Below, piece after piece: positions 38,506 through 63,858 of a DNA stretch of 64,000 nucleotides. A program made the translations under genes and the position numbers. The stretch covers positions 263,592 through 327,591 of the forward strand of contig CAVQCT010000002.1 in assembly GCA_963711085.1 (NCBI GenBank), in the 5' to 3' direction. Source of the stretch: an uncultured candidate division Zixibacteria bacterium (lineage in GTDB: Bacteria; Zixibacteria; MSB-5A5; GN15; FEB-12). The notes under the pieces are model-generated. The model worked only from the letters and a program-made list of their open reading frames with translations, was not told the origin of the DNA and searched no databases. Each line of letters starts with the position of its first letter. Position 1 is the first letter of the stretch.

Positions 38506-39111
38506 CTAGTCCTCTCTGCAAATTTCTCGTATCGAATCGTAGATCCAACCCGAGACTGTGTTGGTGTCCTTCAAAATAAGTAATTTCAGCGAAGGATCTA
38601 GCCAGCGGCGAATTTTATTTAACTTCTCCTGAGAAATCCGTTCTTTCCCTAACGACTTCAGTGCCTGAACTATGATCGCACTCTCGTGATGCTTGAAGCC
38701 AATTTCCTTTGTAGTCGAATTCCGAAATACTAAGCTGACTTTTCCGATTTCATAGGTACGATCAGGTCCACTCGAACGATATAGATACTTTCCCACGACT
38801 TGTGTGGACAAGCCGATCGTATTCAAGGCAGCAGGACCACTCGGTTCGATTTCCCATTTGAATTTGCGAGCCAATGCTTGCGCGACTTGATCAACGTCTG
38901 GCCCCAATTGCTGATTCAAGGATTTACTGAATCCCGGATAGTCATAGATTCCACGAATAACTCTTCTAATTTCGCCCTTTTCACAGAGCGTGTGCAAAGC
39001 GACGTCGATGGAAGCACGGGTTCCAATAGTGGAAAAGTCTGTCCGAGAGAAAGCCCATCCCCTGCCCTTGCCGTATATTACCTGGCTTATTTTTCTTTTC
39101 ACGCTTCTCAT
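38506..39111 (-). CDS. abiEi: DUF6088/AbiEi-family antitoxin
   Basis: Winged helix (IRRVIRGIYDYP), GPAALN.IGLSTQV; abuts the toxin gene. Confidence 0.88.
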   Translation of the reverse strand: MRSVKRKISQVIYGKGRGWAFSRTDFSTIGTRASIDVALHTLCEKGEIRRVIRGIYDYPGFSKSLNQQLGPDVDQVAQALARKFKWEIEPSGPAALNTIGLSTQVVGKYLYRSSGPDRTYEIGKVSLVFRNSTTKEIGFKHHESAIIVQALKSLGKERISQEKLNKIRRWLDPSLKLLILKDTNTVSGWIYDSIREICRED

Positions 39112-44600: not shown

Positions 44601-44945
44601 ATATTCTCCCTGAATCCTAACACATGAACTTTGTCTGTCCTCGTCCTCTCAGAAGGAATATGTACAAATCATCGAGAATCTCAGATGACCGGCAGCTTGC
44701 CGCATACTAAGGACAGAAATCTCCTTTGACAGAGATTTCTCTTTCGCACAAGTCCCTCGTGCGTTGCCGGATAGTTTTATTCCCGGTTGTGCCCGTATTG
44801 GTGGTCATGGATAATCAAAAGAGTGATCTTTAGTCAACTCTCCTTCACTCACTTTTGCATCACGTTCTTTCTTGAATATCTTGACCTCTACGCTGTTCCC
44901 ACGCAGTATGCCGATCATCATCGAAGCAGCCCCAACTCTTTGATG

Positions 44946-47291
44946 TTAGAGGTGATCACATGGTGATGGTCCATCTCCGAACATGTATGTAACCATATAG
45001 ATTAGATCTGATACGTCGACGCCTCCGTCGCAATTTACATCCGCCGCTTCAGTAATTGGAATTGGACCAGGACCGCCGTTAAACTGGTAATCCACAAGAT
45101 AAACGAGATCCGAAACATCGCTCACTCCGTCGGCATTGACATCACCTGGGACGAGGATAGCACCAGGCAGCACGTTGTAACTTTCTGAACCAACGGCCAA
45201 AACACCAGTCGAGTTGTCAAGATGCCCACGAATCTGGCTCCTACCTCTGATTGGGCTTGATTCTGGGTAAAGATCATTGATAATGAGTGTCTGAACCGTC
45301 AAATCTACCATACCAGTAGAGATACTATACGATCCGAAATTGGTCGCCGAAACTGAGGTGTCAAGCGAGATGTGATTCGGCCCCGTCTCAATTGATCCAA
45401 GCTCTACCGAAGGACAATCAAATGAATAATCACTTAGCACGATGTTTAGAGTATCAGGGTTTGATGACACCGACGCCTCAGCGGTAAAGGCTCCTGTGAA
45501 GCCCGATACATAAAGTCGGTATCCCCCGAGAATATCGGGAAGATCGTACCATGCCGATCGAGGTAGAGTGTCGATCAGACTGAAGTTAATCTGTGCTGGA
45601 GCAGTAGGAAGAGGTACAGAAGTTTGGAAGAACAGTGTTGGATCGGCCTTACCTTTCTTCTGAGGACTATCGCAGCTAGAAAACGTGCCGCAATCAAACC
45701 AGTCGCCTACATATACCGTTCCGCCGTCAGCCAAGCAAGTTGTCGAGGGATAATCCTCTGTGATTTCACGACAATCGGAACTACCAAGACAACAGATCGC
45801 ATCACCAGTTATTGATAGAGGATGATTCATCAATTGCATGTCGAAGTTCTCGAGGCTCGTCCAGTCGGAGACGTGTGCTGCGATCACGTTCTCCTGTCCG
45901 GTGTGCAAATAGCTTGTGATATCAATGTCGGGGACAGAGTAGTTTGGATTACAAGGCGGATCGCCGTTAACACACCCCGCCTGATGACATCCGGTTCCCC
46001 ACGCGCCTATTTGAATGCCGTTTATCCAAACTGAAATTGCATCGTCACTCTTGAAATGAATAGATACTCCGTCCCCCGATTCCGAGCCGCCATAGCTATA
46101 TGTTAGTCGGTAAAATCTGTCGCAATAGTCGCATCCCCAGCCTGTATTTGGAAGTAATACCGGCGCCCACTGACCAGGAGTCACAACAAAATCTGGCTGA
46201 TACCAATTGTGAGAAGAATCGTCAGATGGCCCAACGCAGTCACCCATTGGAGTTGTAGAAAACCAAGTGCCCGTTCGGATATCAAGCTGGAAGTGCATGC
46301 CACCCCAATCTCGAAGCAGGCCACCGGATGAGTGGTTTGGGCGGAAATACGCGGACACCACACCAGTATCATTCTGGCCGGAGACTTGGCCCACAAAAAC
46401 AAAAGTTGCTGTGTCACCCGGATCTACTACTGCTTCTTGCATGGTGCATGGTGATTCCAAATTAATCCAAGAGTGATAATGAAGGGGGCTGCTTCCATCA
46501 GACAATACGTTGCCTTCTGAGTCACAAGCTTTCAACTCAACATAATCATTGTGATGTGCTTCTGGATCGTTGAACCAGGGCGTCCGCCCATTGTTTACAA
46601 ACTTCACGGTGAACTGAATGGGTTGATCGGAGGGAATAGCAGCCACCCCCGATGGCATTTGGGAGCCGTACGAGCATGCATAGAACTTATAGTCAGGATC
46701 ACGCAGCCAACCTTGTACCTCATACCCTGAACCGAATGTACCGACCATGTAAGGTGCTTCGGAAGAGAGTGAGAGCCGACATGGATCATTATTAGCATCA
46801 GTGGTTCTATTCTGGTCGATCATCAAGAGATAATCATCACCGATTTCCATGACGATTCCGACGTGGCCCACGTTTGAGTGTCCCGGCGCCGGGCCAAAGC
46901 ACAGAATGTCCCCTGGTTGAGGTTTTGCTTCATTGCCCTGAGCAAACCTTACGAGGTTATTGTTGTCTCCCACACCTCCATCTGCTAGTCCAAAAGCGTT
47001 CTTGGCATCTCCCCAGGAAGTTACAATTGGGTCCCCTACCTCATCTCCGTAGAATCGCTTTACGAACTCAACGCACTGATATCTATAGCCATAATCACTG
47101 GTTCCGTCGCAGCAGTCTACGTCCGATCCATTCGAGTAGGCTACGATATTCCTGAACGAGTTTAATTCGGTTCCCCAGTTTCCGGGACAATCTCCCGCGC
47201 ACTGCGCCTGTGGAGATTTGATACTAGGCATCAGGCCAATAGACAACACAAGCAACCAGCGCAACATCCTCATGACTTCCTCCTTAATCAC
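44946..47291 (-). CDS. Secreted CHAP-domain protein with Ig-like, jelly-roll and dockerin domains
   Basis: QCVEFVKR...GDA...PGDI...GHVGIV CHAP Cys/His; GDVNADG...DLVYLVDY dockerin. Confidence 0.85.
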   Translation of the reverse strand: MIKEEVMRMLRWLLVLSIGLMPSIKSPQAQCAGDCPGNWGTELNSFRNIVAYSNGSDVDCCDGTSDYGYRYQCVEFVKRFYGDEVGDPIVTSWGDAKNAFGLADGGVGDNNNLVRFAQGNEAKPQPGDILCFGPAPGHSNVGHVGIVMEIGDDYLLMIDQNRTTDANNDPCRLSLSSEAPYMVGTFGSGYEVQGWLRDPDYKFYACSYGSQMPSGVAAIPSDQPIQFTVKFVNNGRTPWFNDPEAHHNDYVELKACDSEGNVLSDGSSPLHYHSWINLESPCTMQEAVVDPGDTATFVFVGQVSGQNDTGVVSAYFRPNHSSGGLLRDWGGMHFQLDIRTGTWFSTTPMGDCVGPSDDSSHNWYQPDFVVTPGQWAPVLLPNTGWGCDYCDRFYRLTYSYGGSESGDGVSIHFKSDDAISVWINGIQIGAWGTGCHQAGCVNGDPPCNPNYSVPDIDITSYLHTGQENVIAAHVSDWTSLENFDMQLMNHPLSITGDAICCLGSSDCREITEDYPSTTCLADGGTVYVGDWFDCGTFSSCDSPQKKGKADPTLFFQTSVPLPTAPAQINFSLIDTLPRSAWYDLPDILGGYRLYVSGFTGAFTAEASVSSNPDTLNIVLSDYSFDCPSVELGSIETGPNHISLDTSVSATNFGSYSISTGMVDLTVQTLIINDLYPESSPIRGRSQIRGHLDNSTGVLAVGSESYNVLPGAILVPGDVNADGVSDVSDLVYLVDYQFNGGPGPIPITEAADVNCDGGVDVSDLIYMVTYMFGDGPSPCDHL

Positions 47292-47487: not shown

Positions 47488-47670
47488 TCAGCGATATTTC
47501 TTCAACCAATTATCCAGTGTCTGATAATCGGATAGCCCTAGCGGCCTGGCGGCTTTGGTCTTTACGCCATGCGATTCGGTCATGGCTTTGGTAACGTAAT
47601 GACGCATGACTTCAGACATGACCTCATGGAAATTGCACCCGGCGCCCAGTGGACGGTCAAGTACATTGTC
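47488..47670 (-). pseudogene. C-terminal Fis-type HTH remnant of a sigma-54-type regulator
   Basis: RHYV.KAM..S.GVKTKAAR.LGL..YQTL.NWLKKY. Confidence 0.55.
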
Positions 47671-47679
47671 TGGCGGCTG

Positions 47680-48105
47680 GAATAAATGAAGCACGTCATC
47701 GGCAGTCAGCTGCCGACTGACCCAGATAACAAGGCACTCCCGGGTGTATCCATCGACAACATTCAGGATACGTAACGGCCAGTTGTCGTGGGTCCGGTCA
47801 AGAACAAAGTCATATGACCAGAGATGATTCGGGTATTCCGCCCGCCGTCTCACACAGGAGCCAGCGTTGAACCACAACCGACCTCGTTTCGGCTGTTTCT
47901 TCGGAACCTTCAGCCCCTCCTGCCGCCAGATCCACCCCCTTGTGATTCACCCGGAAACCCTCCGCTCTCAGTAACGCCGTAATCCGCCGATACCAATAAA
48001 GTCCGTACTCACGGGCCAACACCGTGATCCATTGTCTCAGCCGCAGCTCCATGAACATTGTCTGCGGCTCATGCAGCTGCGTCGAACGAGGCTGTTTCAA
48101 CACCC
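47680..48105 (-). mobile_element. IS3-family transposase remnant (degraded)
   Basis: YRRITALLRAEGFRVNHK, PNHLWSYDFV.DRT, LNVVDGYTRECL; frameshifted and truncated. Confidence 0.85.
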
Positions 48106-48954: not shown

Positions 48955-49626
48955 ATGGAACCAGAAGAGCAGGGTCCATCTAGTACCCATAAGATCGGAA
49001 AAGAAACAGAAATCAAGAACGCAACATCGGTTAATCATCAGAACACTAACAGCGACGGCGGCAAAGTCCCGCATGACGACTGGCAAAATGGGATCCTACA
49101 GAGTGGAGACAAAATGACTGCGCTTCTGGAGCAAAATGAATTGATTCTGTCAAAACTGGATGACATATACAAGAGTTTGGAGGATAGCACTGAAAAGGGG
49201 CGTTTGATTGAAAGCCTCTTCCGCAAGAACAAAGAATATGAGGAGGACTTCTTCTTTAACAAGATTATCAAAAGACTATTTCTGGATGTGATTAAAGTCT
49301 TCGAAAGAGTGGACCGAATCTACCTGGGTGAACTTGATGCCTATCATCAAGAAACTGAGACGTCTAAGAAATTCTTAAGCCTTCGCCGCGAAATGTTGCA
49401 GCTGCTCAGACGAAACGACATTGAGTTGAAAGACACAACTGGAGCTGCTTTTGACGAGTCAATCTGTGAGGCTATAGACATCAAGGCTGTTGATACACCG
49501 GAGGACGACATGAAGATAGTAGAGGTCATCTCTCCGGCATTTTACTATTTGAACAAACTGCTGAAACCTGCCATGGTCGTGGTGGGAAAATATACCAGCA
49601 ATAGTAAGGAATACCGACATGAGTAA
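48955..49626 (+). CDS. GrpE-like nucleotide exchange factor
   Basis: Coiled coil followed by GAAFDESICEAI...IVEVISPAFYYLNKLLKPAMVVV; overlaps the Hsp70 start. Confidence 0.85.
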   Translation: MEPEEQGPSSTHKIGKETEIKNATSVNHQNTNSDGGKVPHDDWQNGILQSGDKMTALLEQNELILSKLDDIYKSLEDSTEKGRLIESLFRKNKEYEEDFFFNKIIKRLFLDVIKVFERVDRIYLGELDAYHQETETSKKFLSLRREMLQLLRRNDIELKDTTGAAFDESICEAIDIKAVDTPEDDMKIVEVISPAFYYLNKLLKPAMVVVGKYTSNSKEYRHE

Positions 49627-51157
49627 AGTTCTAGGTATCGATCTTGGAACAACCAATTCCTGTATGTCAGTAATTGACGAAAATGGGCGACCGAAGATAA
49701 TCCCTAACTCTGAAGGCGAAAATACAACACCATCGGTGATCCTCTTTAGGGACGGAGAACGAATTGTTGGTAGAAGAGCAAAGCGATCTGCTGTCGCTCA
49801 GCACAAAAATGTCGCTATGTTGATGAAGACAACAATGATAGCCGAAGACAGTACTCCTTTTGTTGACGCACAAGGGAATGAGTATAGCTTCGAAGAACTG
49901 TCGGCGACCGTATTGAGAAAGCTGAAACTTGATGCTGAGAGAGCTCTTGGTTATGGAATAACTCAGGCGATAATAACAGTTCCCGCGTATTTTCAGAACT
50001 ACGAAAGAAACCGAACAAAAGCTGCGGGTGAGGTAGCTGGTTTTGAGGTGTTGCGTATCATAAACGAACCGACTGCCGCTGCCCTATCTTACGGACTGGA
50101 TCAAGGACACAAGAGCCAAACGGTGCTAGTTTTCGATCTCGGTGGGGGCACCTTTGATGTGACCATTATCAGGGTCGAAGGAAACGATATCCGAGTCCTC
50201 AGCACTGACGGCAATAAATCTCTCGGGGGTTCTAACTTTGACGGTGAGCTTGTAGATTTTTTCTACGAGCAATTCAAGGAACAGACAGGCGTCGATTTAA
50301 GCGAAGAGGACAATGAAAGGAGAATTCTGCAGGATTTTACTGACAGGGCTGAGTCGGCCAAGATAGACTTGTCGGCGGATACTGTCGTATATGTTGCCCT
50401 ATCTGCCGCAGGCAAAACTGTTGATATTGAGCTCACCCGCGAGAAATTCGAATCACTGATTGCTTCATATATTGAGGAAACGCGAGAGACTACAAACAGT
50501 TGTCTCCAGGCCGCGTCGCTTGAATGGACTGACATTGACAAGGTACTTTTAGTTGGTGGATCAACGAGAATACCGGCTATAAGCAAGATGCTCGAAGAAC
50601 TTTCCAACAAGAAAGCGGAAATGGGTATAAATCCAGATGAAGTTGTTGCCATGGGGGCGGCGATAATTGGTGCCACGGAAGTCGGTCAAACTGTCGTTGA
50701 CAAAACCGGTGGCAAAGTTGCTAAGATTTCAATTACTGATGTAACAGGACATTCTCTGGGTATTATCGCGCTAGATGCGACGAAAGGCAAGGACTGCAAT
50801 TCTATTATCATACCGGCGCAAACGCCTATCCCAGCAGAAAACACAGAACCTTTTGTTACGGTTGAAGATAACCAAACATCAATTAGGATAACAGTTCTTC
50901 AAGGCGAGGATGAAGATCCGGAATCGTGTCGCAAAATTGGTGAGGGATTCCTGATTAAGGGCCTTCCCCCAAAACCTAGAGGACAAGTAAAAATCCATGT
51001 CACTCTAGGCTACGATCGGGAAGGAATAATTCATGTAAGAGCGGTCGAACCCACCTCAGGTGCCGAGGTTGCCGGTGAACTTAAAGACCCTACTCGTGTG
51101 ACCGGAGCGCAAATTTCAGACATGAGGGACAAAGTATCAAAGGTTGATATTAGGTAG
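49619..51157 (+). CDS. Specialised Hsp70-family protein lacking the helical lid
   Basis: GIDLGTTNS, TVPAYF, INEPTAAAL, DLGGGTFD, VGGSTRIP; 512 aa, ends just after the beta substrate-binding domain. Confidence 0.95.
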   Translation: MSKVLGIDLGTTNSCMSVIDENGRPKIIPNSEGENTTPSVILFRDGERIVGRRAKRSAVAQHKNVAMLMKTTMIAEDSTPFVDAQGNEYSFEELSATVLRKLKLDAERALGYGITQAIITVPAYFQNYERNRTKAAGEVAGFEVLRIINEPTAAALSYGLDQGHKSQTVLVFDLGGGTFDVTIIRVEGNDIRVLSTDGNKSLGGSNFDGELVDFFYEQFKEQTGVDLSEEDNERRILQDFTDRAESAKIDLSADTVVYVALSAAGKTVDIELTREKFESLIASYIEETRETTNSCLQAASLEWTDIDKVLLVGGSTRIPAISKMLEELSNKKAEMGINPDEVVAMGAAIIGATEVGQTVVDKTGGKVAKISITDVTGHSLGIIALDATKGKDCNSIIIPAQTPIPAENTEPFVTVEDNQTSIRITVLQGEDEDPESCRKIGEGFLIKGLPPKPRGQVKIHVTLGYDREGIIHVRAVEPTSGAEVAGELKDPTRVTGAQISDMRDKVSKVDIR

Positions 51158-51164
51158 AGCGATC

Positions 51165-52009
51165 ATGCTTGATAACTATTATGAATTGCTCGGATTGGAT
51201 GCTGGTGCGACCTTTGAAGAGATAAGAAAAATCATTAACGCCAAAATTCGCGAGATTCAGGGCGATCGCTACAGTACGGACAGAAAGAGATCGGAAGAGG
51301 CAACGTTGAAGCTTAGGCAGCTGCAGCAAATCAAGAAGACGTTGTTGGATACTGGACAAAGAAACGAATATGATCAGCAGGTAGGTCTTGAAAACAGTGC
51401 CGCTTCTGAAGACCGAATACAGATCAAACTTACCCTAGAAAATCTCCTTGGAGAACCGACATCCTCATCCGTGAGCAATGCTCAACCTATGCTATAGCGC
51501 TTGTCATCGACACCTCTGGCAGCATGTGCGGCCAGAGTATCCTTGACGCTAAAGACGCCATGCATAGTTTTTTGGATGATCTGAAGGATATTCGCTGTCG
51601 GGTAGCCCTGGTGAGTTTCGGCGACCGGACTGGTTTGATTTGTCCTCTGACAGAAAATCACGGAACCGTGAGACGAGGTATTGATTCTCTCGTAGTTTCG
51701 AATGGGACTCCACTATTGGCCGCCATGACAACTGCAAACGAAACGCTTTTTGATGAGATCAACAACGTATCGCTGTGCGTTATCGCAACTGACGGCCACC
51801 CCGACGAAAGCCAAGATACCATTCTCGGCTACGCCTGCAAAATGAAGGGCAGAGGTATTAGGATTGTAGTTATCGGTATCGGATCCGGCATACCAGAGGA
51901 TTTCCTCAGGCAGCTCGCCTCATCCGAAGATGACTATTTCTTCGCCAAGGCCAGTGTTGAGTTGAAGAAGATCTACAGAAAAATCTCAGATGGTTTAACG
52001 AGAATGTAG
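51165..52009 (+). CDS. Degenerate J-domain plus vWA fusion; 1-bp frameshift near 51490
   Basis: NYYELLGL...A...EIRK...LLD...R.EYD with no HPD; IALVIDTSGSM MIDAS, GTPL, ATDG. Confidence 0.8.
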
Positions 52010-52023
52010 GCAGTTGATTTAGA

Positions 52024-54033
52024 TTGGAAGAAAACTACAAGAATTTTTACGAATTGATTCCGGGGCTTATTGACAGCGATGCTGCCAGAGATAGCAACTT
52101 GCAGTTTCTGGAGGAGGCACGGAAGAGGCTAAAGAATAAAAGAAACATCGAAGGTGAAGCGCAGCATTTTCTGGTGCGACATGCCATAACAGTATTCAGA
52201 GACAACGAAAAGTACAAGGAATTCAGACTTGAACACGGAAGAAGACACCTCGTCGGACTTGTAGAAGCTTCGCTATTTGGAGATGACGTGGTATCTCAAT
52301 CAGAATTGGGGGAAATAATTAGAGAGGGCGAGAAATATGGTTTAACAGAATCCGCGACGAGGAGATTCGTTGAAAATGAAGTTGTCAAGCGTCATGGGCA
52401 AATCGAAACTCCTTCCGGACGGAAAACGCCGACTGAACCTGATCCGCCTAGACCCAATCCACCGAAGCAAGACGAACTCTCGCCCGTCGTCAGTGCGAAC
52501 ATAGCAACGGGCATAGCAGCCTCACTAGCAGTTATCTATATTATTCTTGAGAGAGGGGGATTATATGTCGGAGGGTGGTTCGGTTGGTTAGAGATGATCC
52601 TCTTTGTCGCCCCCGCCATTGTCTCAATCTCAAACGCTTCGCACGGCGCCAAAAGGCATGGCTGGAGTTTGGTGGCAGCTTTTATACTGTATTTCGAGAA
52701 TTATCATACTCTCCTGATCCTGCTCCCGGTTTTCGCACTCTGGCACTGGTCACCTTTTGTGTTTTCCCGGGTGCAGAGAAAACCTAACTTAGTCTGGATA
52801 TTGCCACTAGTACTTTGTGTACTAGTATATGGTTCGGTCGGGGCCGTGCAGCGAATCCCAAAACAAAAGTCATTTATAGGGCCGGCTCCGGAGCACAACG
52901 GGAATGAGGCCAACAAGCGGGAAGAGCAGGAGACTTATCTGAATGCTAAGCGTGACCTAAGGCCCGTCGATTATCTAACGCGTTATCCGAGAGGACCGCA
53001 CGCCGCTGAGATGAGATCAATGGCCGACAGTATTCAGTCTGCGCTCGCAATGGCGAACGACAAACGTATGAAAGAGGAGCAAGCACTCAAGACGAAGCAT
53101 GAGGAACAACAACGGCAGCTGGTGCAGCAACAAACACATCCACAGCCAGCGCAGCAAGCGGCTCAGACCAATATGGCCGAAACCGGTGAGACCACACTTT
53201 CTTACACTTTCACGCGGGATAGCTTGGCTCTTGATATCTTTGCCACTGAGCCTAGCAAAAACACAGGCGTGGAGGTTGGGAAAGGAGACAGTTTAGACCT
53301 AGCGGTGACCTCGTCGACTGAAATTGTCTGGCAAGACGGACAAGCTCCGGTCGGTCCTACCGGAACTCCATTTCTGGCAGATTCACTCATTGATGGCTAT
53401 GCCTTTCTATGTCCTGAAGCTCCCTGTGGCGCTATAGTCGCGAAGATTAGCGATACGGGAAAATGGTTTTACGTAGGCAAGAGGTATGTCGGACAGTCAA
53501 ATCTCGACGGGCAACTATATGTCGCGGTGAATGACAGGCAAGGTCAATTCGCCGACAATTTTGGTGTGTTTACCGTTCAATTGATTCATGTCACGAGGAC
53601 GGCCATTGATGAAAGGCACACCGACCCAAAGACTATGAGCTCCAATAATGAAGAGCGTTCAATTTCTCAACCTCCTAAGAGCGTACTTGTGGGCCCGGGG
53701 CGGATTTTTGCGGAGATCTCAAATATTGATGATCGGGCCAAAATTTACCTAGCGGAGAAGACGATTGCCGAAGGCCAGTATGGCAAGGGCCCGGGTGGCA
53801 TCGCTGTCGGAAATAGGCCAGGGCACACAGAGAAAATAGATATTGGTAATTATTTACATCGTGGGCAAAACAGCCTCAGGTTTGAGGTCTGGAACAAGAG
53901 CGTGTGCTGTGGTGTAAGTGGCACTTTCAGAATATACGATGGAAACCAATTATTGATTGAAAAGAAGTTTAGTCGAAAGGATTCATCAGAAGGCGTAAAA
54001 TACAATGAGACCGTCACAATTCGTGTAAACTGA
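52024..54033 (+). CDS. Multi-pass membrane protein: J-like/TerB-like N-terminus, LecA/PA-IL-like and jelly-roll C-terminal domains
   Basis: NFYEL start; DDVVSQSE...GEKYGL; about five TM helices; NTGVEV..GD...GAIVAKI...GQLY.AVND...DN.G. Confidence 0.7.
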   Translation: MEENYKNFYELIPGLIDSDAARDSNLQFLEEARKRLKNKRNIEGEAQHFLVRHAITVFRDNEKYKEFRLEHGRRHLVGLVEASLFGDDVVSQSELGEIIREGEKYGLTESATRRFVENEVVKRHGQIETPSGRKTPTEPDPPRPNPPKQDELSPVVSANIATGIAASLAVIYIILERGGLYVGGWFGWLEMILFVAPAIVSISNASHGAKRHGWSLVAAFILYFENYHTLLILLPVFALWHWSPFVFSRVQRKPNLVWILPLVLCVLVYGSVGAVQRIPKQKSFIGPAPEHNGNEANKREEQETYLNAKRDLRPVDYLTRYPRGPHAAEMRSMADSIQSALAMANDKRMKEEQALKTKHEEQQRQLVQQQTHPQPAQQAAQTNMAETGETTLSYTFTRDSLALDIFATEPSKNTGVEVGKGDSLDLAVTSSTEIVWQDGQAPVGPTGTPFLADSLIDGYAFLCPEAPCGAIVAKISDTGKWFYVGKRYVGQSNLDGQLYVAVNDRQGQFADNFGVFTVQLIHVTRTAIDERHTDPKTMSSNNEERSISQPPKSVLVGPGRIFAEISNIDDRAKIYLAEKTIAEGQYGKGPGGIAVGNRPGHTEKIDIGNYLHRGQNSLRFEVWNKSVCCGVSGTFRIYDGNQLLIEKKFSRKDSSEGVKYNETVTIRVN

Positions 54034-54150
54034 TGCCGAAGTGTTCTGTTCAGTCTCTATGTCCTAAGGACGGAAATAGGCTGTGATGTCCTAATCTGAC
54101 GAGAAAGAGCCACGTATCCAATTAACTGCCTAGGAGGAGGAAATGGGAGT

Positions 54151-55347
54151 ATGAAAACTCTGTTGAAGACTTGCGCCGGATTGGTCGCCATCATCGTTGT
54201 TGGCTGCGGAGGATCAAGAGTCTTGCAGCAACCGATGACATATCAGAATAACAATCCATCAACTGTCGACCAAGTTGTTACAGATCTCGCAAACGATGCC
54301 TGTCAGCACTTGGCAGGTCAAAAAATCAAGGGACGTCTCGCTTTGTTGGACTGTTATGGGCCATCGGAGAATCCGACCTCTCTCGAGCAAGTTATTACCG
54401 ACGTCAGTCTGGCGAAACTCAGTCAGTGCTCTGTTTCAGAGATGAAAGATATCAAGCTATTGCAGCCTGACCTAATTAGGACAACCATGGCTGTGATGGA
54501 GTTATCCCCTCGGTCGTCAAATATTATGTCAAACGCCAAGCAGTGGGTTCGGCTCGGGGCCCGTATCGTCGGAACTTCTCACTGGGTGCAGTTGTCTGAA
54601 CAAAGTCTCAAAATAGTAATGGAGTTCTATGACGTTGGAGCAGGAGGTCAACAACTTTTTTCGGTGGAAAGAACAATGACTAAGGATGATGCCGTTCGAC
54701 GGTTAATGGGTGAGAGACTGCCTGGTCAGCTAGTAGTAGAGTCACCCTCAAATGGAGCAAAAGTATATGTTGATGGTGGCTACAAGGGAACCCTTGGCGG
54801 GAGTCCTCTGAGTTTTGAAGTCCCCTATGGTTCACACGGATTGCGAGTGGAAAAGGAGGGCTTCAAGGCGTTTTCAAAATCGGTATTTATCCAAGAACGA
54901 GGCTCCGAATCGGCGAAAGTCAAATTTACACAAGCACACACTGCTCCACTCAAAGGGATGTTTCTTAGTGCCGTCGCACCTGGTTCAGCCAGTCTAGTAT
55001 ACGAGAACCGGGTGGGTCTCAAGAATCCTGCTATTTCGGCCAATGGCGCACTTGCGGTCTTGTTCTATTGCGGAGCAATAGCATGGGTCATCGACGATCA
55101 AAGTAAGAATGATTTCCTTGTGGAGAAGGGACGACACGATTATGAGACGATCAGGAACATAGAGCTATATTCCACATTGGGTCTCTATCTAGGGAATGTA
55201 ATAACCGGGTGGCTTGTCGGCAATGAGTACCGCAAGGTAAGCAAGCGAGGAGTGGAATATACAGCAAATGATTCCAACCCTCACTTGTTTGTATATAGTG
55301 CATCGAATACACAAGCTACAATGCTAAAACTTGCGATCAGTTTCTGA
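54151..55347 (+). CDS. Lipoprotein with FlgO/CsgG-like and PEGA domains
   Basis: Lipobox VVGC; SNGAKVYVDG...G.H.LRVEKEGF PEGA motif; GGAGGAGG RBS. Confidence 0.75.
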   Translation: MKTLLKTCAGLVAIIVVGCGGSRVLQQPMTYQNNNPSTVDQVVTDLANDACQHLAGQKIKGRLALLDCYGPSENPTSLEQVITDVSLAKLSQCSVSEMKDIKLLQPDLIRTTMAVMELSPRSSNIMSNAKQWVRLGARIVGTSHWVQLSEQSLKIVMEFYDVGAGGQQLFSVERTMTKDDAVRRLMGERLPGQLVVESPSNGAKVYVDGGYKGTLGGSPLSFEVPYGSHGLRVEKEGFKAFSKSVFIQERGSESAKVKFTQAHTAPLKGMFLSAVAPGSASLVYENRVGLKNPAISANGALAVLFYCGAIAWVIDDQSKNDFLVEKGRHDYETIRNIELYSTLGLYLGNVITGWLVGNEYRKVSKRGVEYTANDSNPHLFVYSASNTQATMLKLAISF

Positions 55348-55363
55348 AGCGATGAGGTGTGTT

Positions 55364-55750
55364 ATGAATAGAAATCTGATAACGTTTGGTCTTCTGATAG
55401 TTGCAATTCCCATGATGATTGGATGCGCATCGATCCTTTCGAAGGACGCCGAGGTAACAGGTAAGGTGAAGTTAGCAGATAACCCACCAAATGGCTTCGG
55501 TGGCGTGTTAGTGAGCAATGGCTATTCGGCAACACATTCAAATTTTGATGGCAGCTTTTCGCTCTCAGGCAAAATATTGGGCGATGCGAACTTTGACGTC
55601 GTCTTCTCCAAAGAAGGATATGTTAGTAAGTCGGTTCACGTAAGCCTAGATTATGGTTCAAACGCTAGCCCAACCGGCTCCAGCAGAGATATCTCAGTCA
55701 ACGTTGGAACAATAACATTGTCTAGAGTGACAAGGAAACCTTCACCTTAG
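55364..55750 (+). CDS. Lipoprotein with carboxypeptidase-regulatory-like Ig fold
   Basis: Lipobox MIGC; VTGKV...DGSFSL...FSKEGY. Confidence 0.7.
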   Translation: MNRNLITFGLLIVAIPMMIGCASILSKDAEVTGKVKLADNPPNGFGGVLVSNGYSATHSNFDGSFSLSGKILGDANFDVVFSKEGYVSKSVHVSLDYGSNASPTGSSRDISVNVGTITLSRVTRKPSP

Positions 55751-56689
55751 GTGCTCAGAAACACCCATACATTTCAATATCCAGTCTGCTGATCCGTTCT
55801 GTCCAATATCCAACGTTATTGTGACAATCGTTACTGCGCCAACCGTTTTCGGCAAAGAGATCACTCCGAATCACTTACACAGCAGACTAGCCAAAAGGCA
55901 CCTATCAGACCTCATTCTGACTTTCAGTGTTGAGGTATGCGTCTTTCAGACTCCAGACAATTCGTCGGTGGAGACAACGTAGAACTCATACGAAGCAGTT
56001 TTCTTGACTTCTAATTCAGATACTCGCATAGGTGATCTTGGCCTACTTCAGAACCTCCTTCCTTCGTGACAATCGGTTCAGTAAGCATTTGAGGATTCAT
56101 CCGTCACTTGCTCAAGCGACATGCTTTTGAATTGATTCTGCGCCAAGACTTTGTTTTGGGCCATCCTGACAAGTTTACAATGCTGATAATGTCGCACATT
56201 CCGTGAGACTATGTCAGAACAGCATTTCTCAAATTGACATGGCCCCCAGTAGTACGAATCTCATAGTCCCTCCGTAACACGCTTTATGACGGGGACTTTC
56301 AAGGACTGATAGCTTCCCAATTAGATGAATTCAGTAAGTTCTGTGCCAGTGATGAATGTCAGTACACGATAGAGCAACTTACGCTGATGCAAGATGTTGC
56401 AGGTGAGTAGACGTCTGCCGAGATGCTGAAACAACGAGTTGATCACGCGTTTTCATTCACATTCGTCTAGCGGATTGGTGATTACCATTTAGGGCTCGAT
56501 TGTTTTAACGGCTATCTCATTCCGCATGTGGAGTAGTTTGAAACCGAATAATCCTGGAAATAAGTGGAGATTTTGAGGATTCTCGCACTGGGGATTGTCG
56601 TCGATCATTGGGCAACAACTAGATTTCTCGGAACAGCTAGCAATGAAGCCACACCAGCATGATAGTATTGGCTTTCTAGTTCGGTTATC

Positions 56690-59600
56690 TCATGAAAAGT
56701 TTGTCTCCAAAACTTTCAGAATGTCTTTGCCGTGTTTCGTCACGATCTTGTTCTTACAATCCTCAGCAAAGTTATCAAAGTCATCGATTACCGAACCTCG
56801 TTGATTGTATATGTGTAGTTGTATGTAGCGATCTAGGACATCAATATCTTTGGCAACTTTGGCGTTGTATGACGTCCCTTTGCTGAAATCAGCTATCCGT
56901 TTTCCGATCATTCGAAGCCCACCGCAATCTGGATAAGTGCCAAGCATCTCAATATAGGAAATCGCTTCAGCCTCCTCTTTAGCACTTTTTGCATTCACTT
57001 CATTAGGAAGAATATCGCCAGTATATGCTTCCGCCAAATCGTGCGCGAGAACGAGATTCACTATTTCGTCCTTGCTGTAGCCTGCCTCAGTTGAGGTGTG
57101 TGGTAGCAACGCTACCGCAAGCAAATACGCCCCGTAGACGTGAGCACCGACAGTCTCTACTGGGTCAATTTTGCGCACCTTCCAGCCACTTCGTGGCAGT
57201 AGCTTAATCTTAGATAATGTGTCAATAATAGTCCGAATTGAAAAACCGTCAGTAGTAAAGTTCTTTGACACCATGCGGAGATAGCTTCGTAATCCTTCAT
57301 TGCTTAGGATATCCCCAAGGAGCAGTTGCTGCGCCAGATTGAAGAGTTCATCTGCCAATTCCTTTGATAATTTACCGCATACATGTCTATGTTGAGCAAG
57401 TGAAAACAAGGTATGAACTTCTATTTCGAATAGGTTGTCGTCTCCATTACCATCCCTGACTCGCGATAGAAGGAAATAATAGGTATTGGGAAAGTCATCC
57501 AGTGGGTCCTCGTGCAGAAGTGGTTCAGTGGGTATGAAGGGCACATCGCCATAATATTCAAGATGAAAGCCTCTATTCAAAGCATCCCATCTAGAATCGC
57601 TAAGCAGAAGATCTACATACTTTTCACTCGACGCACGATCACCAAGCAAACTCAAGCTAATATAAGTTGTTCTTAACAAACGCATCAACGATAGTACTTG
57701 ATCTTCAGTTTTTGAATCAGAAAGTCTTTCATGCCAAAGTAACTTGGTGCCTATGAGCAACTCTTTAGCCATGCTTTTGTACTGAGGAAGCGTAACGCGA
57801 CCGACTAAGTAGCTGAGATTTGCCAAGATTGTTGAATCGACGATTCTGTTTCTACTTGACGGTTTCAGAACATCCTTGAATATGTTCTCAATTGCCTTGA
57901 AGACCACCGACTGTACTTTCTCATCATCACTTAGCATTTCCTTAAGGAAGGCATATACTCGGTTGTGATAAATGGCTGACAGTGCGCTGAGAGATTTTTT
58001 GTTCCTCTTCTTGTGGTAACTAGTCAAGCTTCGAACGACCTGCTTTGCGACGAGAAAATGCCTTATGATTGGATTGATATGCAGGAGGGTCCAACCGGGA
58101 TGGTCTCTAAGGTCTTTAGATGCAACCTCCTCTTCAGGATGAATCTCCCATTTGAAAGCGAGTTCGCTGATCTCCACTAGCGTTGTCTCTGGGGTAGAGC
58201 GTTCTTTTGCTACTGAAGTCAGATACTCCAAACAGTAATCCTGAAGACAACGATTGAGGCTTACGCCACCTCTAGGATCATTCTTCTTGATCTGTTCAAG
58301 CATGATCGCGGCCGTGAACAGGTCGATTGCGCTAAGGTGACTTTGCGCAACGACACGCTTAAACCGCGTAAGGAGTTCCGAATCATGATTCTGATTGACA
58401 AAACTAAGAAATAGATTGCAAAACTTTTCGATGTCTTCCTTGGTATTGATTGCAAATGGGTGAAATGAGAAGACATTGGGAGTACGAAATTCTGTCGGAA
58501 GTTCTCTTTCGTATTCAATATCGCGTTTAGATTCCCTTCTGAATCTTGCCGCAATAATCTTTTTGTGTTTAGCCTTCTTGAGAATATCATTTAGCGACTT
58601 AAGCAGTTGGAGAGCAAATCGTGATTCATCCGCGAAACCGTCGATCAGAACCAAAAGCGGAATCGAGGAGTCGAGTTTGATAAGTTCTATAAGTGGTGCA
58701 AAGTCAGATTTTATGCACTCAGCAACCTGAGACTGTATTCTTGCACCTCCCTCAGTATCGTAAATGATCGAATTGTATCGAGTAAGACTAACAAATACTG
58801 GCAACAATTTGCTTGTCTTCTTTATGTACTTGTAGTAAGCATAAGAGTAGAGCATACCCAAGAACCCTGACTTTCCCGTACCGGGCAATCCACTCAATGT
58901 CAATGTTACTTCGTCTTCTGATTGCTCGATATGCTGTATTACTTGTTCGAAGAGGTGACCGTCCTCACTAAGAAAAAAGTTGTGCTTACTAATGTTCTCA
59001 AACATCGCGGAGACATGCTGCATATTTTCATCATCGAGGGCATGCGCTTGAGTTAGATAGGATGGTAGGTGCTCTCTTTCGATCATCGAGGTAAGAAGAC
59101 TTACAAGCTCGGCAAACTTCTTCTCTTTCTGGTAACCGGCTGTTCCCTCTTGATTCGTAGTAATAGAAGTGTCCATATGATCTAGACACATTCGTAGCGC
59201 CCAAAGTGCATTGTGCATGGCAATTCTTCTAAGAGCACCTCGATACTTTTTCTCGATCTCTTTCTTCGATTCGTCCGCAGGATCTGAAATGCCTCTGATC
59301 ACTGTGGCACGCATACTTCCGTCATTACGGAACCGAGCTTTCAACATTCCATGTGACTCTTGATCCATGGCAAAAAAATTGCGATTCAGATCACTTGTCA
59401 GCCACTTTTTGAACTTCCACGTAGCTCCCACAAAAGGCCCAGTGGCAATGTCCTCAACGAATAACCCAACCTGAAGACTAATCAAACGTTTCTCGCGAAG
59501 TGATTGACTCTCTTCAGACGTAAGCGATTGATTTGCGAATGCCTGGCAACTTGATTGCCATCGATTCCATAGCAAAGGATCCCGAAATTTCATCTGACGA

Positions 59601-60058
59601 AAAAGAGTTTGAATTGTGGAACTCGTATTGATAGGGTCTTGACTAGGTAGGATGTCGTCAAAACTTAAAACCTGATCATTTGGCTCCGTTCCTGACACTA
59701 TTTTTGGTCTATGTAAGTAATGATAGACCGTTCGGCCAACTACCACATCTCCAAGATGGACATCATCAGACACTTTGCCAGCCATACCAACCAGACATAA
59801 TAGCCTCGGTTCGAATTTCTGAAGCATTATTGTTGTTCGGTTGTCGCACTCTGCATCACTTGCCTCGCCGATGTAGGTCGCGACTCCGCGGAGCGGTGCG
59901 CCAACCTGTCGACTATACTCGAAGTCGTAGTATGGCAGGTCCGAATCCCCTTGACTTTGCAGCTTTGTATCCAAGACATCATCTACAAGTTCAAATTCCT
60001 CTTGAAGGGCAATGACTAGCAATACATCGACGGGCTGCTTACGGGTTAACTGGTTCAT
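56690..60058 (-). CDS. PNP/MTA-nucleosidase + P-loop NTPase + HD (YfbR-like) fusion protein
   Basis: IALQEE, VGMAG...LGDVVV, IRGISD; Walker A GLPGTGKS, Walker B LVLIDG; PRSGW...ETVGAH...HDLAEAYTGD...DIDVLD. Confidence 0.88.
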   Translation of the reverse strand: MNQLTRKQPVDVLLVIALQEEFELVDDVLDTKLQSQGDSDLPYYDFEYSRQVGAPLRGVATYIGEASDAECDNRTTIMLQKFEPRLLCLVGMAGKVSDDVHLGDVVVGRTVYHYLHRPKIVSGTEPNDQVLSFDDILPSQDPINTSSTIQTLFRQMKFRDPLLWNRWQSSCQAFANQSLTSEESQSLREKRLISLQVGLFVEDIATGPFVGATWKFKKWLTSDLNRNFFAMDQESHGMLKARFRNDGSMRATVIRGISDPADESKKEIEKKYRGALRRIAMHNALWALRMCLDHMDTSITTNQEGTAGYQKEKKFAELVSLLTSMIEREHLPSYLTQAHALDDENMQHVSAMFENISKHNFFLSEDGHLFEQVIQHIEQSEDEVTLTLSGLPGTGKSGFLGMLYSYAYYKYIKKTSKLLPVFVSLTRYNSIIYDTEGGARIQSQVAECIKSDFAPLIELIKLDSSIPLLVLIDGFADESRFALQLLKSLNDILKKAKHKKIIAARFRRESKRDIEYERELPTEFRTPNVFSFHPFAINTKEDIEKFCNLFLSFVNQNHDSELLTRFKRVVAQSHLSAIDLFTAAIMLEQIKKNDPRGGVSLNRCLQDYCLEYLTSVAKERSTPETTLVEISELAFKWEIHPEEEVASKDLRDHPGWTLLHINPIIRHFLVAKQVVRSLTSYHKKRNKKSLSALSAIYHNRVYAFLKEMLSDDEKVQSVVFKAIENIFKDVLKPSSRNRIVDSTILANLSYLVGRVTLPQYKSMAKELLIGTKLLWHERLSDSKTEDQVLSLMRLLRTTYISLSLLGDRASSEKYVDLLLSDSRWDALNRGFHLEYYGDVPFIPTEPLLHEDPLDDFPNTYYFLLSRVRDGNGDDNLFEIEVHTLFSLAQHRHVCGKLSKELADELFNLAQQLLLGDILSNEGLRSYLRMVSKNFTTDGFSIRTIIDTLSKIKLLPRSGWKVRKIDPVETVGAHVYGAYLLAVALLPHTSTEAGYSKDEIVNLVLAHDLAEAYTGDILPNEVNAKSAKEEAEAISYIEMLGTYPDCGGLRMIGKRIADFSKGTSYNAKVAKDIDVLDRYIQLHIYNQRGSVIDDFDNFAEDCKNKIVTKHGKDILKVLETNFS

Positions 60059-60188
60059 CGTACTCCTTTGTCTCTCAGCGATAGGGATACTAACATAACT
60101 TCATGTTTCGGCCGCGTGTGATTTCAATCGGCCCGTTTATACAATGTCAAGTGCGACTTCAGCAGTTTTTAACTTTTGCGTTTGGATA

Positions 60189-61717: not shown

Positions 61718-62350
61718 TTGCGTTATAATTTATATGAAAGTATACCGCATACCATTTATGATGTGCTGTTGAAAGCAAAGCTCGGAGATATAGTCGATAT
61801 CCGGGTAGGGTACCAGCCGAAGGGCAAAGTTGAACCGGACGAGAACAGTCCCTACCGGATCATACAGATTAAGGATTTCGACGACGACCAGAATTTGCTT
61901 GAGGATGACATTACTCTTTTCAGGCCAGATCGTAACCCTGCTCCTTATTTTCTTGAGGTCGGCGACATACTAACTTTATCCCGGGGACAACGCAACTGGT
62001 CAGTGTCATTAGATAAGAACATCGATAATACGGTCGCGGTTGCATTCTTCTTTGTCTTGCGGCCTTACAAAAATGACCTGGTCTCTTCATACCTTGCGTG
62101 GTATCTTAATCAGGTTCCGGCTCAAAGCTATCTGACTCAGATAGCGCGTCGGGGGTCACATATGCAGGTAATCACAAAGGCGACATTTTTGAATCTTCCG
62201 GTTGAAATACCGTCGATTCGGACTCAAAAGAACATAGCGGAACTTGATCGGTTGGTTCGCATGGAGCGGACACTGATGTGCCGGATCGGTGACAAACGTG
62301 ACGAGCTCATCCGGGCAATTTCATTGAGAAATATCGAAGACGAAAGATAA
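61718..62350 (+). CDS. Half-size type I R-M specificity subunit (single TRD); likely start near 61769
   Basis: KLGDI..I..G, YLAWYLN, L.VEIPSI..QK.I. Confidence 0.8.
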   Translation: MRYNLYESIPHTIYDVLLKAKLGDIVDIRVGYQPKGKVEPDENSPYRIIQIKDFDDDQNLLEDDITLFRPDRNPAPYFLEVGDILTLSRGQRNWSVSLDKNIDNTVAVAFFFVLRPYKNDLVSSYLAWYLNQVPAQSYLTQIARRGSHMQVITKATFLNLPVEIPSIRTQKNIAELDRLVRMERTLMCRIGDKRDELIRAISLRNIEDER

Positions 62351-62361
62351 AGGACGCCTAA

Positions 62362-63858
62362 ATGGCAGAGAGAATCAATCAACAAGAAATCAACAATATC
62401 GTGTGGTCGGCGTGTGATACCTTTCGCGGGGCCATCGACCCGGCTCAGTACAAGGACTACATCCTGACCATGCTCTTCATCAAGTATGTCAGTGACTGGT
62501 GGAAAGATAAGCGGGATGAGTACGAGAAGAAGTACAAAGGAGTCGAGGAACGGGTCGATCGTGCTCTTAGTCGAGAAAGGTTCTTCGTCCCAAAGTCGTG
62601 TGATTTTGACTCGCTATACGAGAAGCGAAACGCGCCGAACCTCGGTGAGGAGATCGACAAGGCACTTGAGGCTATCGAAGATGCCAACAAGTCTAAGCTC
62701 GAAAACGTCTTTCGGAATATCAGTTTCAACAGCGAAGCCGCGTTGGGTGATACGAAAGAGCGCAATCGCCGGCTGAAGCAGCTTCTCGATGATTTCGGAG
62801 ACAAACGACTGGATCTGCGACCGAGTGTGATCGGCGATAATGATATCATTGGAGACGTTTATGAATACCTGATTGAGAAGTTCGCCGCCGGTGCTGGCAA
62901 AAAGGCCGGTGAATTCTACACACCCAAAGAAGTGTCAAGGTTGCTGGCGAAGCTCGTGGCACCGAAACCGGGGGCGAGAATACTCGATCCGGCATGCGGA
63001 TCGGGTTCCCTGCTGATCCGAGTGGCTAATGAGATAAGTAGTGACGATTACTCGTTGGCCGGTCAGGAAGTCAATGGGTCAACCTGGGCGTTGTGCAGAA
63101 TGAATATGTTCCTTCACAACAAAGACGGTGCTCGGATTGAATGGTGCAACACGCTGACATCACCGAAGCTGATAGAAGAAAATCGGCTGATGAAGTTCGA
63201 CATCGTGGTGGCCAATCCCCCGTTCTCTCTTGACAAGTGGGGATACGATCAGGCACAAGCAGATATCTACAACCGATTCCATCGCGGACTTCCACCCAAG
63301 AGCAAGGCTGACTATGCCTTCATCACGCACATGATCGAGTCGGCCGTTGAAGGTTCTGGTCGGGTGGGAGTGATAGTCCCACACGGAGTGCTGTTCAGAG
63401 GCGGTGCCGAGGGGCGTATTCGGCAGAAGTTAATCGATGAGAATTTGCTGGACGCGGTGATTGGATTACCCGCTCAGCTCTTCTACGGTACTGGAATCCC
63501 TACTGCCATCCTTGTTTTTGACAAAGGTCGAGGGAAAAAGACCGACGTGTTGTTTATCGACGCAAGCCGGGAATTTGAAGACGGGAAACGTCAGAATCAT
63601 CTTCGGGACGAGGATATCGACAAAATCGTGAAGTCTTATAGTATGTACGAAACGATTGAGAAATATTCCTATCGAGCGACAATCGATGAAATCAAGGAGG
63701 CCGAGTACAACTTGAATATACCACGCTACGTCGACACGTTCGAAACGGAAAGGGAGATCGATCTTGAAGGTGTCCTGCGTGAGATCAAGCAGCTTGAGGA
63801 TAGTTTGTCCAAGACACGCGGCGAGATGAATAAATACCTAAAGGAGCTCGGATTTTGA
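62362..63858 (+). CDS. hsdM: Type I R-M methyltransferase subunit
   Basis: GEFYTP, DPACGSG, ANPPF, PHGVLFRG, YNLNIPRYV. Confidence 0.97.
   Translation: MAERINQQEINNIVWSACDTFRGAIDPAQYKDYILTMLFIKYVSDWWKDKRDEYEKKYKGVEERVDRALSRERFFVPKSCDFDSLYEKRNAPNLGEEIDKALEAIEDANKSKLENVFRNISFNSEAALGDTKERNRRLKQLLDDFGDKRLDLRPSVIGDNDIIGDVYEYLIEKFAAGAGKKAGEFYTPKEVSRLLAKLVAPKPGARILDPACGSGSLLIRVANEISSDDYSLAGQEVNGSTWALCRMNMFLHNKDGARIEWCNTLTSPKLIEENRLMKFDIVVANPPFSLDKWGYDQAQADIYNRFHRGLPPKSKADYAFITHMIESAVEGSGRVGVIVPHGVLFRGGAEGRIRQKLIDENLLDAVIGLPAQLFYGTGIPTAILVFDKGRGKKTDVLFIDASREFEDGKRQNHLRDEDIDKIVKSYSMYETIEKYSYRATIDEIKEAEYNLNIPRYVDTFETEREIDLEGVLREIKQLEDSLSKTRGEMNKYLKELGF

Follow-up and report, generated by a model that had tools for sequence, protein, structure and literature searches.

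We analysed a 64,000-nucleotide stretch of DNA (the window) from an uncultured candidate division Zixibacteria bacterium (assembly GCA_963711085.1, contig CAVQCT010000002.1, positions 263,592 to 327,591 of the forward strand). On the reverse strand of the window, positions 56690-60058 (stop codon included) form a single unbroken open reading frame (ORF) for a protein of 1122 amino acids (aa), which we call P0001. It carries a PNP/MTAN-fold nucleosidase domain, a NACHT-type NTPase, a helical region and an HD_3 domain, in this order. The original prediction had proposed such a fusion of nucleosidase, NTPase, helical and HD parts. Pfam, sequence motifs and fold matches confirm it, and the coordinate ranges then given for the three domains are correct, with Walker A and Walker B both inside 58500-58900. 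P0001 represents a large, unnamed family in which the C-terminal part is kept and the N-terminal domain is exchanged. We tentatively read it as an anti-phage switch with a nucleotide input.

Domain organization of P0001

The ATG codon of the gene at 60058 follows a Shine-Dalgarno-like AAGGAG, read from the sequence at 60063-60068 (reverse strand), by 4 nt. In the 130-bp gap to the upstream gene, promoter and terminator signals did not exceed chance; the promoter and terminator scans gave 10 against 9.6 expected, and 5 against 4.9, respectively. Across the whole window, there was no tRNA and no Rfam family. An AlphaFold2 model of full-length P0001, built on 94 sequences, reached a predicted local distance difference test (pLDDT) score of 91.8 and a predicted template modelling (pTM) score of 0.76. 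The C-terminal 378 residues, modelled alone, reached 96.1 and 0.92, respectively.

The PNP/MTAN-fold domain, the presumed effector, spans aa 8-295 (59174-60037, reverse strand, as are all parts of the gene), supported by Pfam, PADLOC, fold and conserved residues. Pfam PNP_UDP_1 matches aa 15-277 barely above its cut-off (E 5.4e-6, 26.4 bits against 25.1). In the fold searches, the N-terminus matches MTAN (4l0m_A) with a Z of 27.3, a root-mean-square deviation (rmsd) of 2.5 and 224 aligned residues, and Foldseek matches it to 4bmx_B at E 6e-11. The motif DQES, noted in the original prediction, is found at aa 232-235, where the aligned full-length homologues (n = 25) mostly have DMES. Its E234 is invariant in 25/25 full-length members, as are E20/E21 and S258-D259. 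From their position and from the titles of mutant structures in the PDB, we infer that the catalytic residues are equivalent to Glu12 and Asp197 of MTAN.

PADLOC 2.0.0, whose library lacks families named after 2023, matches the PNP part of P0001 and, beyond that, offers only a 14-bit match to PDC-M13C (E 0.013). The earlier statement that P0001 fits no named system thus stands within that library. The PNP matches are those of the PN-superfamily effector model (E 7e-7, aa 7-114 only) and of PDC-M60C (E 4e-7). No CBASS or Detocs model matched P0001 beyond its PNP part, the NTPase and sensor parts were unmatched by the models of AVAST/Avs and the other named STAND systems, and the library holds no model for the helical and HD_3 module. 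In a searched plasmid collection, matches were likewise confined to the PNP part, and a phage collection searched with P0001 gave no match. The closest plasmid-borne relative is a 631-aa protein annotated as a 'TIR domain-containing protein', encoded on the Klebsiella quasipneumoniae plasmid NZ_CP080102.1 (locus L082, 5007-6902). The N-terminal part of this PNP-TIR protein is 28.7% identical to the PNP domain of the window, its gene has insertion sequence (IS) elements on both sides, and it is carried by 15 Klebsiella or Raoultella plasmids.

A helical linker (aa 307-356, 58991-59140), assigned by DSSP on the model, leads into the NACHT-type STAND nucleotide-binding domain (aa 357-540, 58439-58990), which was recognized by sequence motifs and fold. 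The Walker A motif GLPGTGKS lies at aa 390-397 (58868-58891). The Walker B motif LLVLIDGFADE lies at aa 468-478 (58625-58657), with D473 following the hydrophobic LLVLI. Among the 94 sequences, G393 is invariant, and G390, G395, K396, D473 and G474 are kept in at least 90%. The NTPase is followed by a helical and winged-helix region (aa 541-744, 57827-58438), which was again assigned by DSSP. The linker lies within the stretch of the model, starting at residue 309 or 314 and ending at 755, that was aligned to Avs4 and NOD2. The region past the NTPase lies within the stretch aligned to Avs4, NOD2 and Cdc6/Orc1. Over model residues 314-755, the best scores were to Avs4 (8dgf_A; Z 10.1, rmsd 5.9, 307 aligned), NOD2 (5irm_A; Z 10.0, 370 aligned), ZAR1 (6j5t_G; Z 9.5) and NAIP5 (Z 9.1). 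These Z scores, obtained by searching with the whole of P0001 as modelled, are modest, and the matches cited are all STAND proteins.

Homologues score at or under the cut-off of the Pfam NACHT model (PF05729). P0015 reaches 26.7 bits against a cut-off of 26.7, others reach 17-22 bits, and PF05729 appears in the precomputed annotation of 7/54 homologue matches. The family consensus DGxDE, taken from the aligned full-length homologues, fits the D[GAS]hDE signature of NACHT proteins.

The next domain is helical and TPR-like (aa 745-938, 57245-57826). No Pfam family matched it, and a search of the ESM Atlas with aa 745-940 returned no usable match. Fold searches gave only TPR-like or designed-repeat matches with Z of at most 8.4, a level that is background for helical models. 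This domain holds the most conserved motif of the family, N828-RGFHLEYYG-D838 (57545-57577), for which we found no annotation. In 142 aligned sequences, N828, F831, H832, Y835, D851 and T883 are each kept in 142/142. R829 and D838 are kept in 141, R891 in 140 and S886 in 139, and T883-xxSLAQHR891 forms a second conserved stretch.

The protein ends in an HD domain of the YfbR/HDDC2/YGK1 type (aa 939-1122, 56693-57244), as indicated by Pfam HD_3, PDB sequence matches and fold. HD_3 covers aa 950-1089 with 64.4 bits against a gathering score of 22.5 (E 1.5e-17), and the YfbR-like Pfam family is weaker. The best fold matches are HDDC2 (4dmb_A, Z 21.2), PH0347 (19.4) and YfbR (2paq_A, 17.3), followed by OxsA (15.4), YGK1 (15.3) and the phage protein DatZ (14.0). 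By sequence, the domain matches YGK1 at 4e-11 and HDDC2 at 4e-10 in the PDB. In the printed alignment, H973, H1006-D1007 and D1073 pair with H61, H89-D90 and D159 of YGK1, whose roles as ligands of a mononuclear metal site are taken from the account in PMC8177086. As the original prediction had it, the metal ligands are intact, and these residues are kept in 139-142 of the 142 sequences: H973 and H1006 in 142, D1007 in 139 (with Glu in the other 3) and D1073 in 141. E1010 is kept in 142 and D1015 in 141. According to the same paper, YfbR and YGK1 are dNMP-specific monophosphatases (dNMP, deoxynucleoside monophosphate). YfbR is dimeric, its W19 shuts out ribonucleotides, and its R18 and D77 hold the deoxyribose. 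P0001 has R956 (142/142) and W959 (139/142) in an R-x-G-W motif that the printed alignments show to be common to YGK1 and HDDC2. This motif and D1015 are the likely counterparts of R18, W19 and D77 of YfbR. Judged by its residues, the HD domain is apparently an active 5'-nucleotidase, and the predicted catalytic residues of the PNP, NTPase and HD parts are all intact.

A constant C-terminal module behind exchangeable N-terminal domains

A search of 1.84 billion representative proteins gave 2542 matches at E<=1e-3, of which 288 reach E<=1e-30. Even the closest of these shares no more than 34% identity with P0001. We collected 181 family proteins from two homologue searches and sorted them with custom profiles, and census exemplars were confirmed by Pfam. 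The order PNP-NACHT-helical-HD_3 recurs in 91/181, and the architecture of P0001 is therefore not a product of chance. The same chassis bears an unclassified N-terminus in 40/181. Other N-termini are Trypsin_2 (9/181), PRTase-CE (5/181), Metallophos (4/181), EAD1 (2/181), and CHAT, SIR2_2 and Metallophos-PNP (1/181 each). Pfam searches of 8 unclassified members found an N-terminal HD-CE domain in one and no N-terminal family in the other 7. The one, P0095, combines this HD-CE domain with a C-terminal HD_3 on the NACHT chassis. We thus recognize 8 types of N-terminal domain on a constant chassis (PNP, trypsin, PRTase-CE, metallophosphatase, EAD1, CHAT, SIR2 and HD-CE). In one further variant, the 1900-aa P0022, the entire PNP-NACHT-HD_3 unit is followed by TPR repeats and more NTPase-type Pfam matches.

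The helical and HD_3 module is present in 180/181 proteins, the exception being a 595-aa PNP-NACHT fragment (1/181), and HD_3 itself was swapped in no family member collected. In 20/181 proteins of about 820-886 aa, the order is PNP-helical-HD_3, without a P-loop. The NTPase-less proteins are P0040-P0050, P0117, P0125, P0129, P0136, P0139, P0152, P0155, P0164, P0178 and P0179. P0050 is shorter than the others (675 aa), and the lone GxxxxGKT, in P0042, looks like a chance occurrence. Short proteins with helical and HD_3 domains only were also met: 6/181 in the census, and 2 more when we searched for them specifically, on contigs of 1.6 and 5.6 kb. We rest no conclusion on them, as they are probably contig-end fragments.

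From the swapped N-terminus, and by analogy with NLR-type proteins, the PNP domain would therefore be the effector of P0001. Proteins of the NLR type have their effector at the variable N-terminus and their input at the constant C-terminus (10.1101/2022.07.19.500537; 10.1101/2023.01.24.525353), and for this reason we prefer to see the HD domain as part of the sensor. The original prediction had put first a different idea, that of two nucleotide-destroying enzymes, one at each end, draining nucleotide pools. In such a scheme, the HD domain would dephosphorylate dNMPs and the PNP domain would cleave (deoxy)nucleotides or nucleosides, both under one STAND switch. In favor of this idea, the active sites at the two ends are intact and conserved, and a nucleosidase acting after a 5'-nucleotidase makes chemical sense as a two-step route to destroy dNMPs. 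PNP is the commonest partner of the module (112/181 proteins, in a sample biased towards PNP), and the NTPase-less PNP-helical-HD_3 proteins would suit such a pathway. The constancy of the HD module opposite a swapped N-terminus speaks against it. The module is unchanged beside trypsin, CHAT, SIR2, PRTase-CE, metallophosphatase, HD-CE and the adaptor EAD1, and so it is not tied to PNP chemistry; no member swaps HD_3 itself. Enzymes of the YfbR type are also slow, with a kcat/KM of about 2.6e4 M-1 s-1 for dAMP reported in PMC8177086, which would make a weak pool drainer. We regard the two-enzyme drain as distinctly unlikely. The alternative offered alongside it, a role of the HD domain in sensing or removing a nucleotide signal, is better supported by the swapping pattern and by the analogy to NLR-type proteins.

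The same pattern of exchange is seen in the Avs families, which brings in a closer competitor. In this alternative, P0001 is an Avs-like protein sensor, whose helical/TPR-like region recognizes a phage protein as Avs1-21 do, and the HD domain has an accessory enzymatic task. It might, for instance, maintain the resting state, reset the switch, or clear a nucleotide that the phage makes or that serves counter-defence. According to PMC13581612, all characterized Avs families use a helical or TPR sensor to recognize a phage protein, and aa 745-938 of P0001 do give TPR-like fold matches. Those matches are weak, however, and within the background for helical models. Protein-binding surfaces usually vary, whereas the helical domain of this family, with a length of only some 190 aa, has the most invariant residues of the entire protein, 6 positions being kept in 142/142 sequences. 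We consider a protein-sensing Avs-like receptor unlikely, although more probable than the two-enzyme drain.

Distribution and genomic neighborhood

P0001 was found in 1/41 related genomes and in 1/285 genomes of the phylum, and in both cases the one genome was that of the window itself. Two same-genus genomes (98-100% complete) were searched and had no match. The gene is accessory and patchily distributed. A scan of genome contigs with P0001 alone found no relative. Scanning with the family alignment gave 286 confirmed stretches, and the best 80 of these 286 were kept. Among those 80, only 10 loci (L002-L011) extend past the HD domain, and the others are plain HD_3 genes, mostly archaeal. The 10 loci hold true members of the family and belong to Chthoniobacterales, Roseivirga, Microcystis, Cellvibrionales, Hoeflea, Sphingobium, and four Clostridia-type metagenome-assembled genomes or isolates.

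We checked 2-5 neighbors per locus, and this survey is small and qualitative. A PADLOC defence gene adjoins the family gene in 5/10 loci, the models being DndB/DpdB, a type III methyltransferase (3e-155), AriA (2e-32), a caspase (7e-102) and DrmD/BrxL-like. An integrase adjoins it at a sixth locus. In the other 4/10, the neighbors checked are housekeeping or unknown genes only. Such loci would suit a non-immune role, in which P0001 is a regulated enzyme of nucleotide salvage or homeostasis that joins a nucleotidase, a nucleosidase and an NTP-sensing switch. The automatic names at JGI are metabolic as well ('5'-deoxynucleotidase YfbR-like HD superfamily hydrolase/nucleoside phosphorylase'). A salvage enzyme is hard to reconcile with a gene that occurs once in 285 phylum genomes, that was not found in either same-genus genome searched, and whose best homologue is so distant. 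Conflict systems are typically marked by N-terminal swaps of the kind seen here (to proteases, SIR2, EAD1, PRTase-CE and HD-CE), and defence or mobile genes lie adjacent in the window and in 6/10 loci. We hold a purely metabolic function to be very improbable, and the earlier view of P0001 as a plausible anti-phage STAND protein holds up.

In the window, P0001 lies between a SIR2-like gene and type I restriction-modification genes on one side and a stretch without ORFs of 80 aa or more on the other. The SIR2-like gene, P0002 (60189-61310, reverse strand; 373 aa), ends 130 bp upstream of P0001 and encodes a stand-alone protein with a PADLOC match to Aga_SIR2 (3.5e-10) and a Pfam SIR2_2 match below cut-off. 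The gene call in the collection is shorter (297 aa), and homologues cover 92-97% of the 373-aa frame. Its own family consists of stand-alone proteins of about 340-390 aa with up to 64% identity. We considered P0002 as a conserved partner of P0001 and rejected this, as the best tblastn match at the 10 homologue loci had an E of 2.1. A relation to the SIR2_2 domain fused in P0055 was ruled out (E 4.1), and so was co-distribution (19/285 phylum genomes against 1/285). P0002 is probably an independent single-gene defence candidate. Divergent from it, at 61718-63858 on the forward strand, are a half-size type I restriction-modification S subunit (210 aa) and HsdM (498 aa; PADLOC MTase_I, 6e-142), and the window ends before HsdR could appear.

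On the 3' side of P0001, about 940 bp (55751-56689) hold no ORF of at least 80 aa, no tRNA and no Rfam match. Possibly, it marks the border of an inserted segment. Before it, at 48955-55750 on the forward strand, lies a co-directional cluster. Its chaperone part encodes a GrpE-like protein (223 aa), a short Hsp70 (512 aa), which weakly matches PADLOC PDC-M61B (3e-8), and a J-domain protein (117 aa). The rest encodes a VWA protein (161 aa), a protein with a PA-IL-like lectin domain (669 aa), a PEGA-domain lipoprotein-like protein and a 139-aa protein. The cluster looks like an extra, specialized chaperone/VWA system and not a housekeeping dnaK operon. Farther away, all on the reverse strand, are a 129-aa remnant with an integrase core (rve) and HTH_8 (47488-47877), two large dockerin proteins at 40908-47291 (a 1230-aa M6 peptidase, immune inhibitor A-like, and a 781-aa CHAP-domain protein), and an AbiEii-type nucleotidyltransferase toxin gene at 37522-39111 (Pfam 8e-36), with a 201-aa ORF directly upstream. 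The AbiEii gene and the integrase remnant fit a variable region rich in mobile elements.

A candidate nucleotide input for a proposed NLR-like switch

From the domain content, the models and the analogy to known systems, we lean, without much confidence, towards P0001 being a single-protein NLR-like (STAND/NACHT) switch for anti-phage abortive infection, with an input for nucleotides that is based on the HD domain. NACHT proteins are described as built of three parts, an effector, a switch and a sensor (10.1101/2022.07.19.500537), and N-terminal PNP domains of Avs/NLR-like proteins are described as ATP nucleosidase effectors (10.1101/2023.01.24.525353). By analogy with Cap17, DtcC and the PNP-NLRs, the PNP/MTAN-fold effector of P0001, once on, would cleave the N-glycosidic bond of ATP, dATP or a related adenine nucleotide. 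The NACHT NTPase would act as a nucleotide-dependent oligomerization switch that brings the PNP domains together. The TPR-like and HD_3 module would be the input. Its ligand, which the pocket would bind and probably turn over, would be a 5'-(deoxy)nucleoside monophosphate or a variant of one made by the phage. Occupancy of the pocket would rise on infection, for instance by a dNMP surge from the breakdown of host DNA or by modified dNMPs, and autoinhibition would be released. The invariant NRGFHLEYYGD region may either complete the pocket for the ligand or link it with the NTPase. We favor a nucleotide as the ligand because the nucleotidase pocket is the most strictly conserved part, is kept whatever the effector, and is of the dNMP-specific YfbR type. 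Such a ligand has a reported source: in cells infected by T5, host DNA is said to end up as dNMPs, and the T5 enzyme Dmp then removes these (10.1101/2024.12.20.629578). Non-protein ligands for STAND proteins are left as a possibility in the discussion of PMC13581612.

Several points weigh against a NACHT switch with a nucleotide input. Pfam NACHT has no match to P0001 itself at E<=0.1, and the tail of its Walker B motif, D473-G-F-A-D-E, is one position off the D[GAS]hDE signature. An oligomerization switch cannot be the mechanism of the 20 NTPase-less proteins. In these, the module can be wired to a PNP domain without a switch, which would agree with either direct allosteric control or a two-enzyme pathway. 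The census started from a query that bears a PNP domain, which inflates its PNP share, and the neighbors checked at four of the homologue loci do not point to defence. The known Avs sensors bind phage proteins (PMC13581612), and the TPR-like part of P0001 could do so too, with the HD domain in another role. Lastly, a sensor has no obvious need for full catalysis, and the strict conservation fits equally well an enzyme whose product matters.

We compared P0001 with the described systems that share parts of its design. The PNP-bearing Avs/NLR-like proteins (10.1101/2023.01.24.525353) have in common with it an N-terminal PNP_UDP_1 effector on a STAND NTPase. The forms named there end in TPR or FGE-sulfatase sensors, whereas P0001 ends in a short helical domain and an HD_3 domain that appears catalytically intact. 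The bNACHT proteins (10.1101/2022.07.19.500537) likewise have a variable N-terminal effector, with PNPase among those listed, a central NACHT and a C-terminal input. A term search found no HD domain in their main text or in the domain list of the Figure 2 legend; Table S1 may list one. Avs7-Avs21 and about 90 antiviral STAND families (PMC13581612) are single-protein STAND defences in which the N-terminal effector can be exchanged and the sensor, itself conserved, spreads horizontally, and the P0001 family resembles them in its build. Their sensors wrap phage proteins, and the term 'HD domain' is absent from the main text of that paper, although its supplementary tables may list one.

The HD domain itself has relatives with other roles. 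It shares with YfbR, HDDC2 and YGK1 (PDB 2paq, 4dmb, 5yox) the fold (Z 17.3-21.2, as cited for HDDC2 and YfbR), the H...HD...D ligands and the R-x-G-W motif. Whereas these housekeeping enzymes stand alone and measure about 180-215 aa, the domain of P0001 is fused behind a STAND NTPase and always preceded by the invariant helical domain. In the dGTPase and Clover CloA defences (PMC12265719), an HD-superfamily enzyme acts against phages, and nucleotide ligands set its state. CloA, however, is described as a SAMHD1/Dgt-like dNTP triphosphohydrolase that forms octamers and is itself the effector, whereas the P0001 domain is of the YfbR monophosphatase type and stands in the sensor position. CBASS (Cap17) and Detocs use PNP effectors with partners, a CD-NTase or the histidine kinase DtcA with DtcB, and these are not among the neighbors of P0001 in the window.

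The literature that we searched does not describe any NACHT or STAND protein ending in a YfbR-type HD domain, though supplementary tables of the key papers may list one. Term searches in the main texts of PMC13581612, 10.1101/2022.07.19.500537 and PMC7159879 did not find this combination. PNP-bearing NLR-like and bNACHT proteins and YfbR-type housekeeping nucleotidases are already known; what appears new is the STAND family with a YfbR-type HD domain and an invariant helical cap, for which we found no published description. A bolder version of the nucleotide-input reading is possible but, in our judgment, doubtful: that this is an NLR family whose receptor is a live enzyme, in which a helical-capped YfbR-type nucleotidase reads a dNMP surge or a phage-modified dNMP and the NACHT domain fires interchangeable effectors. 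It would be the first such family in bacteria.

The prokaryotic STAND/Avs receptors characterized in the cited papers sense phage proteins, and the discussion of PMC13581612 leaves open whether any has a non-protein ligand. The P0001 family is large and diverse, with a confident model, a nucleotidase whose active site is fully conserved in the sensor position and, beside it, a second invariant motif outside all known families, and it would allow a direct test of that question. With the HD pocket as input, the family would link surveillance of the nucleotide pool to NLR-type signaling in bacteria, and it would explain a possible escape of phages that control dNMPs, as T5 does through Dmp. Should the input lie elsewhere than in the HD domain, the family would still contribute a sensor module, conserved and so far without annotation, that recurs with at least eight types of effector.

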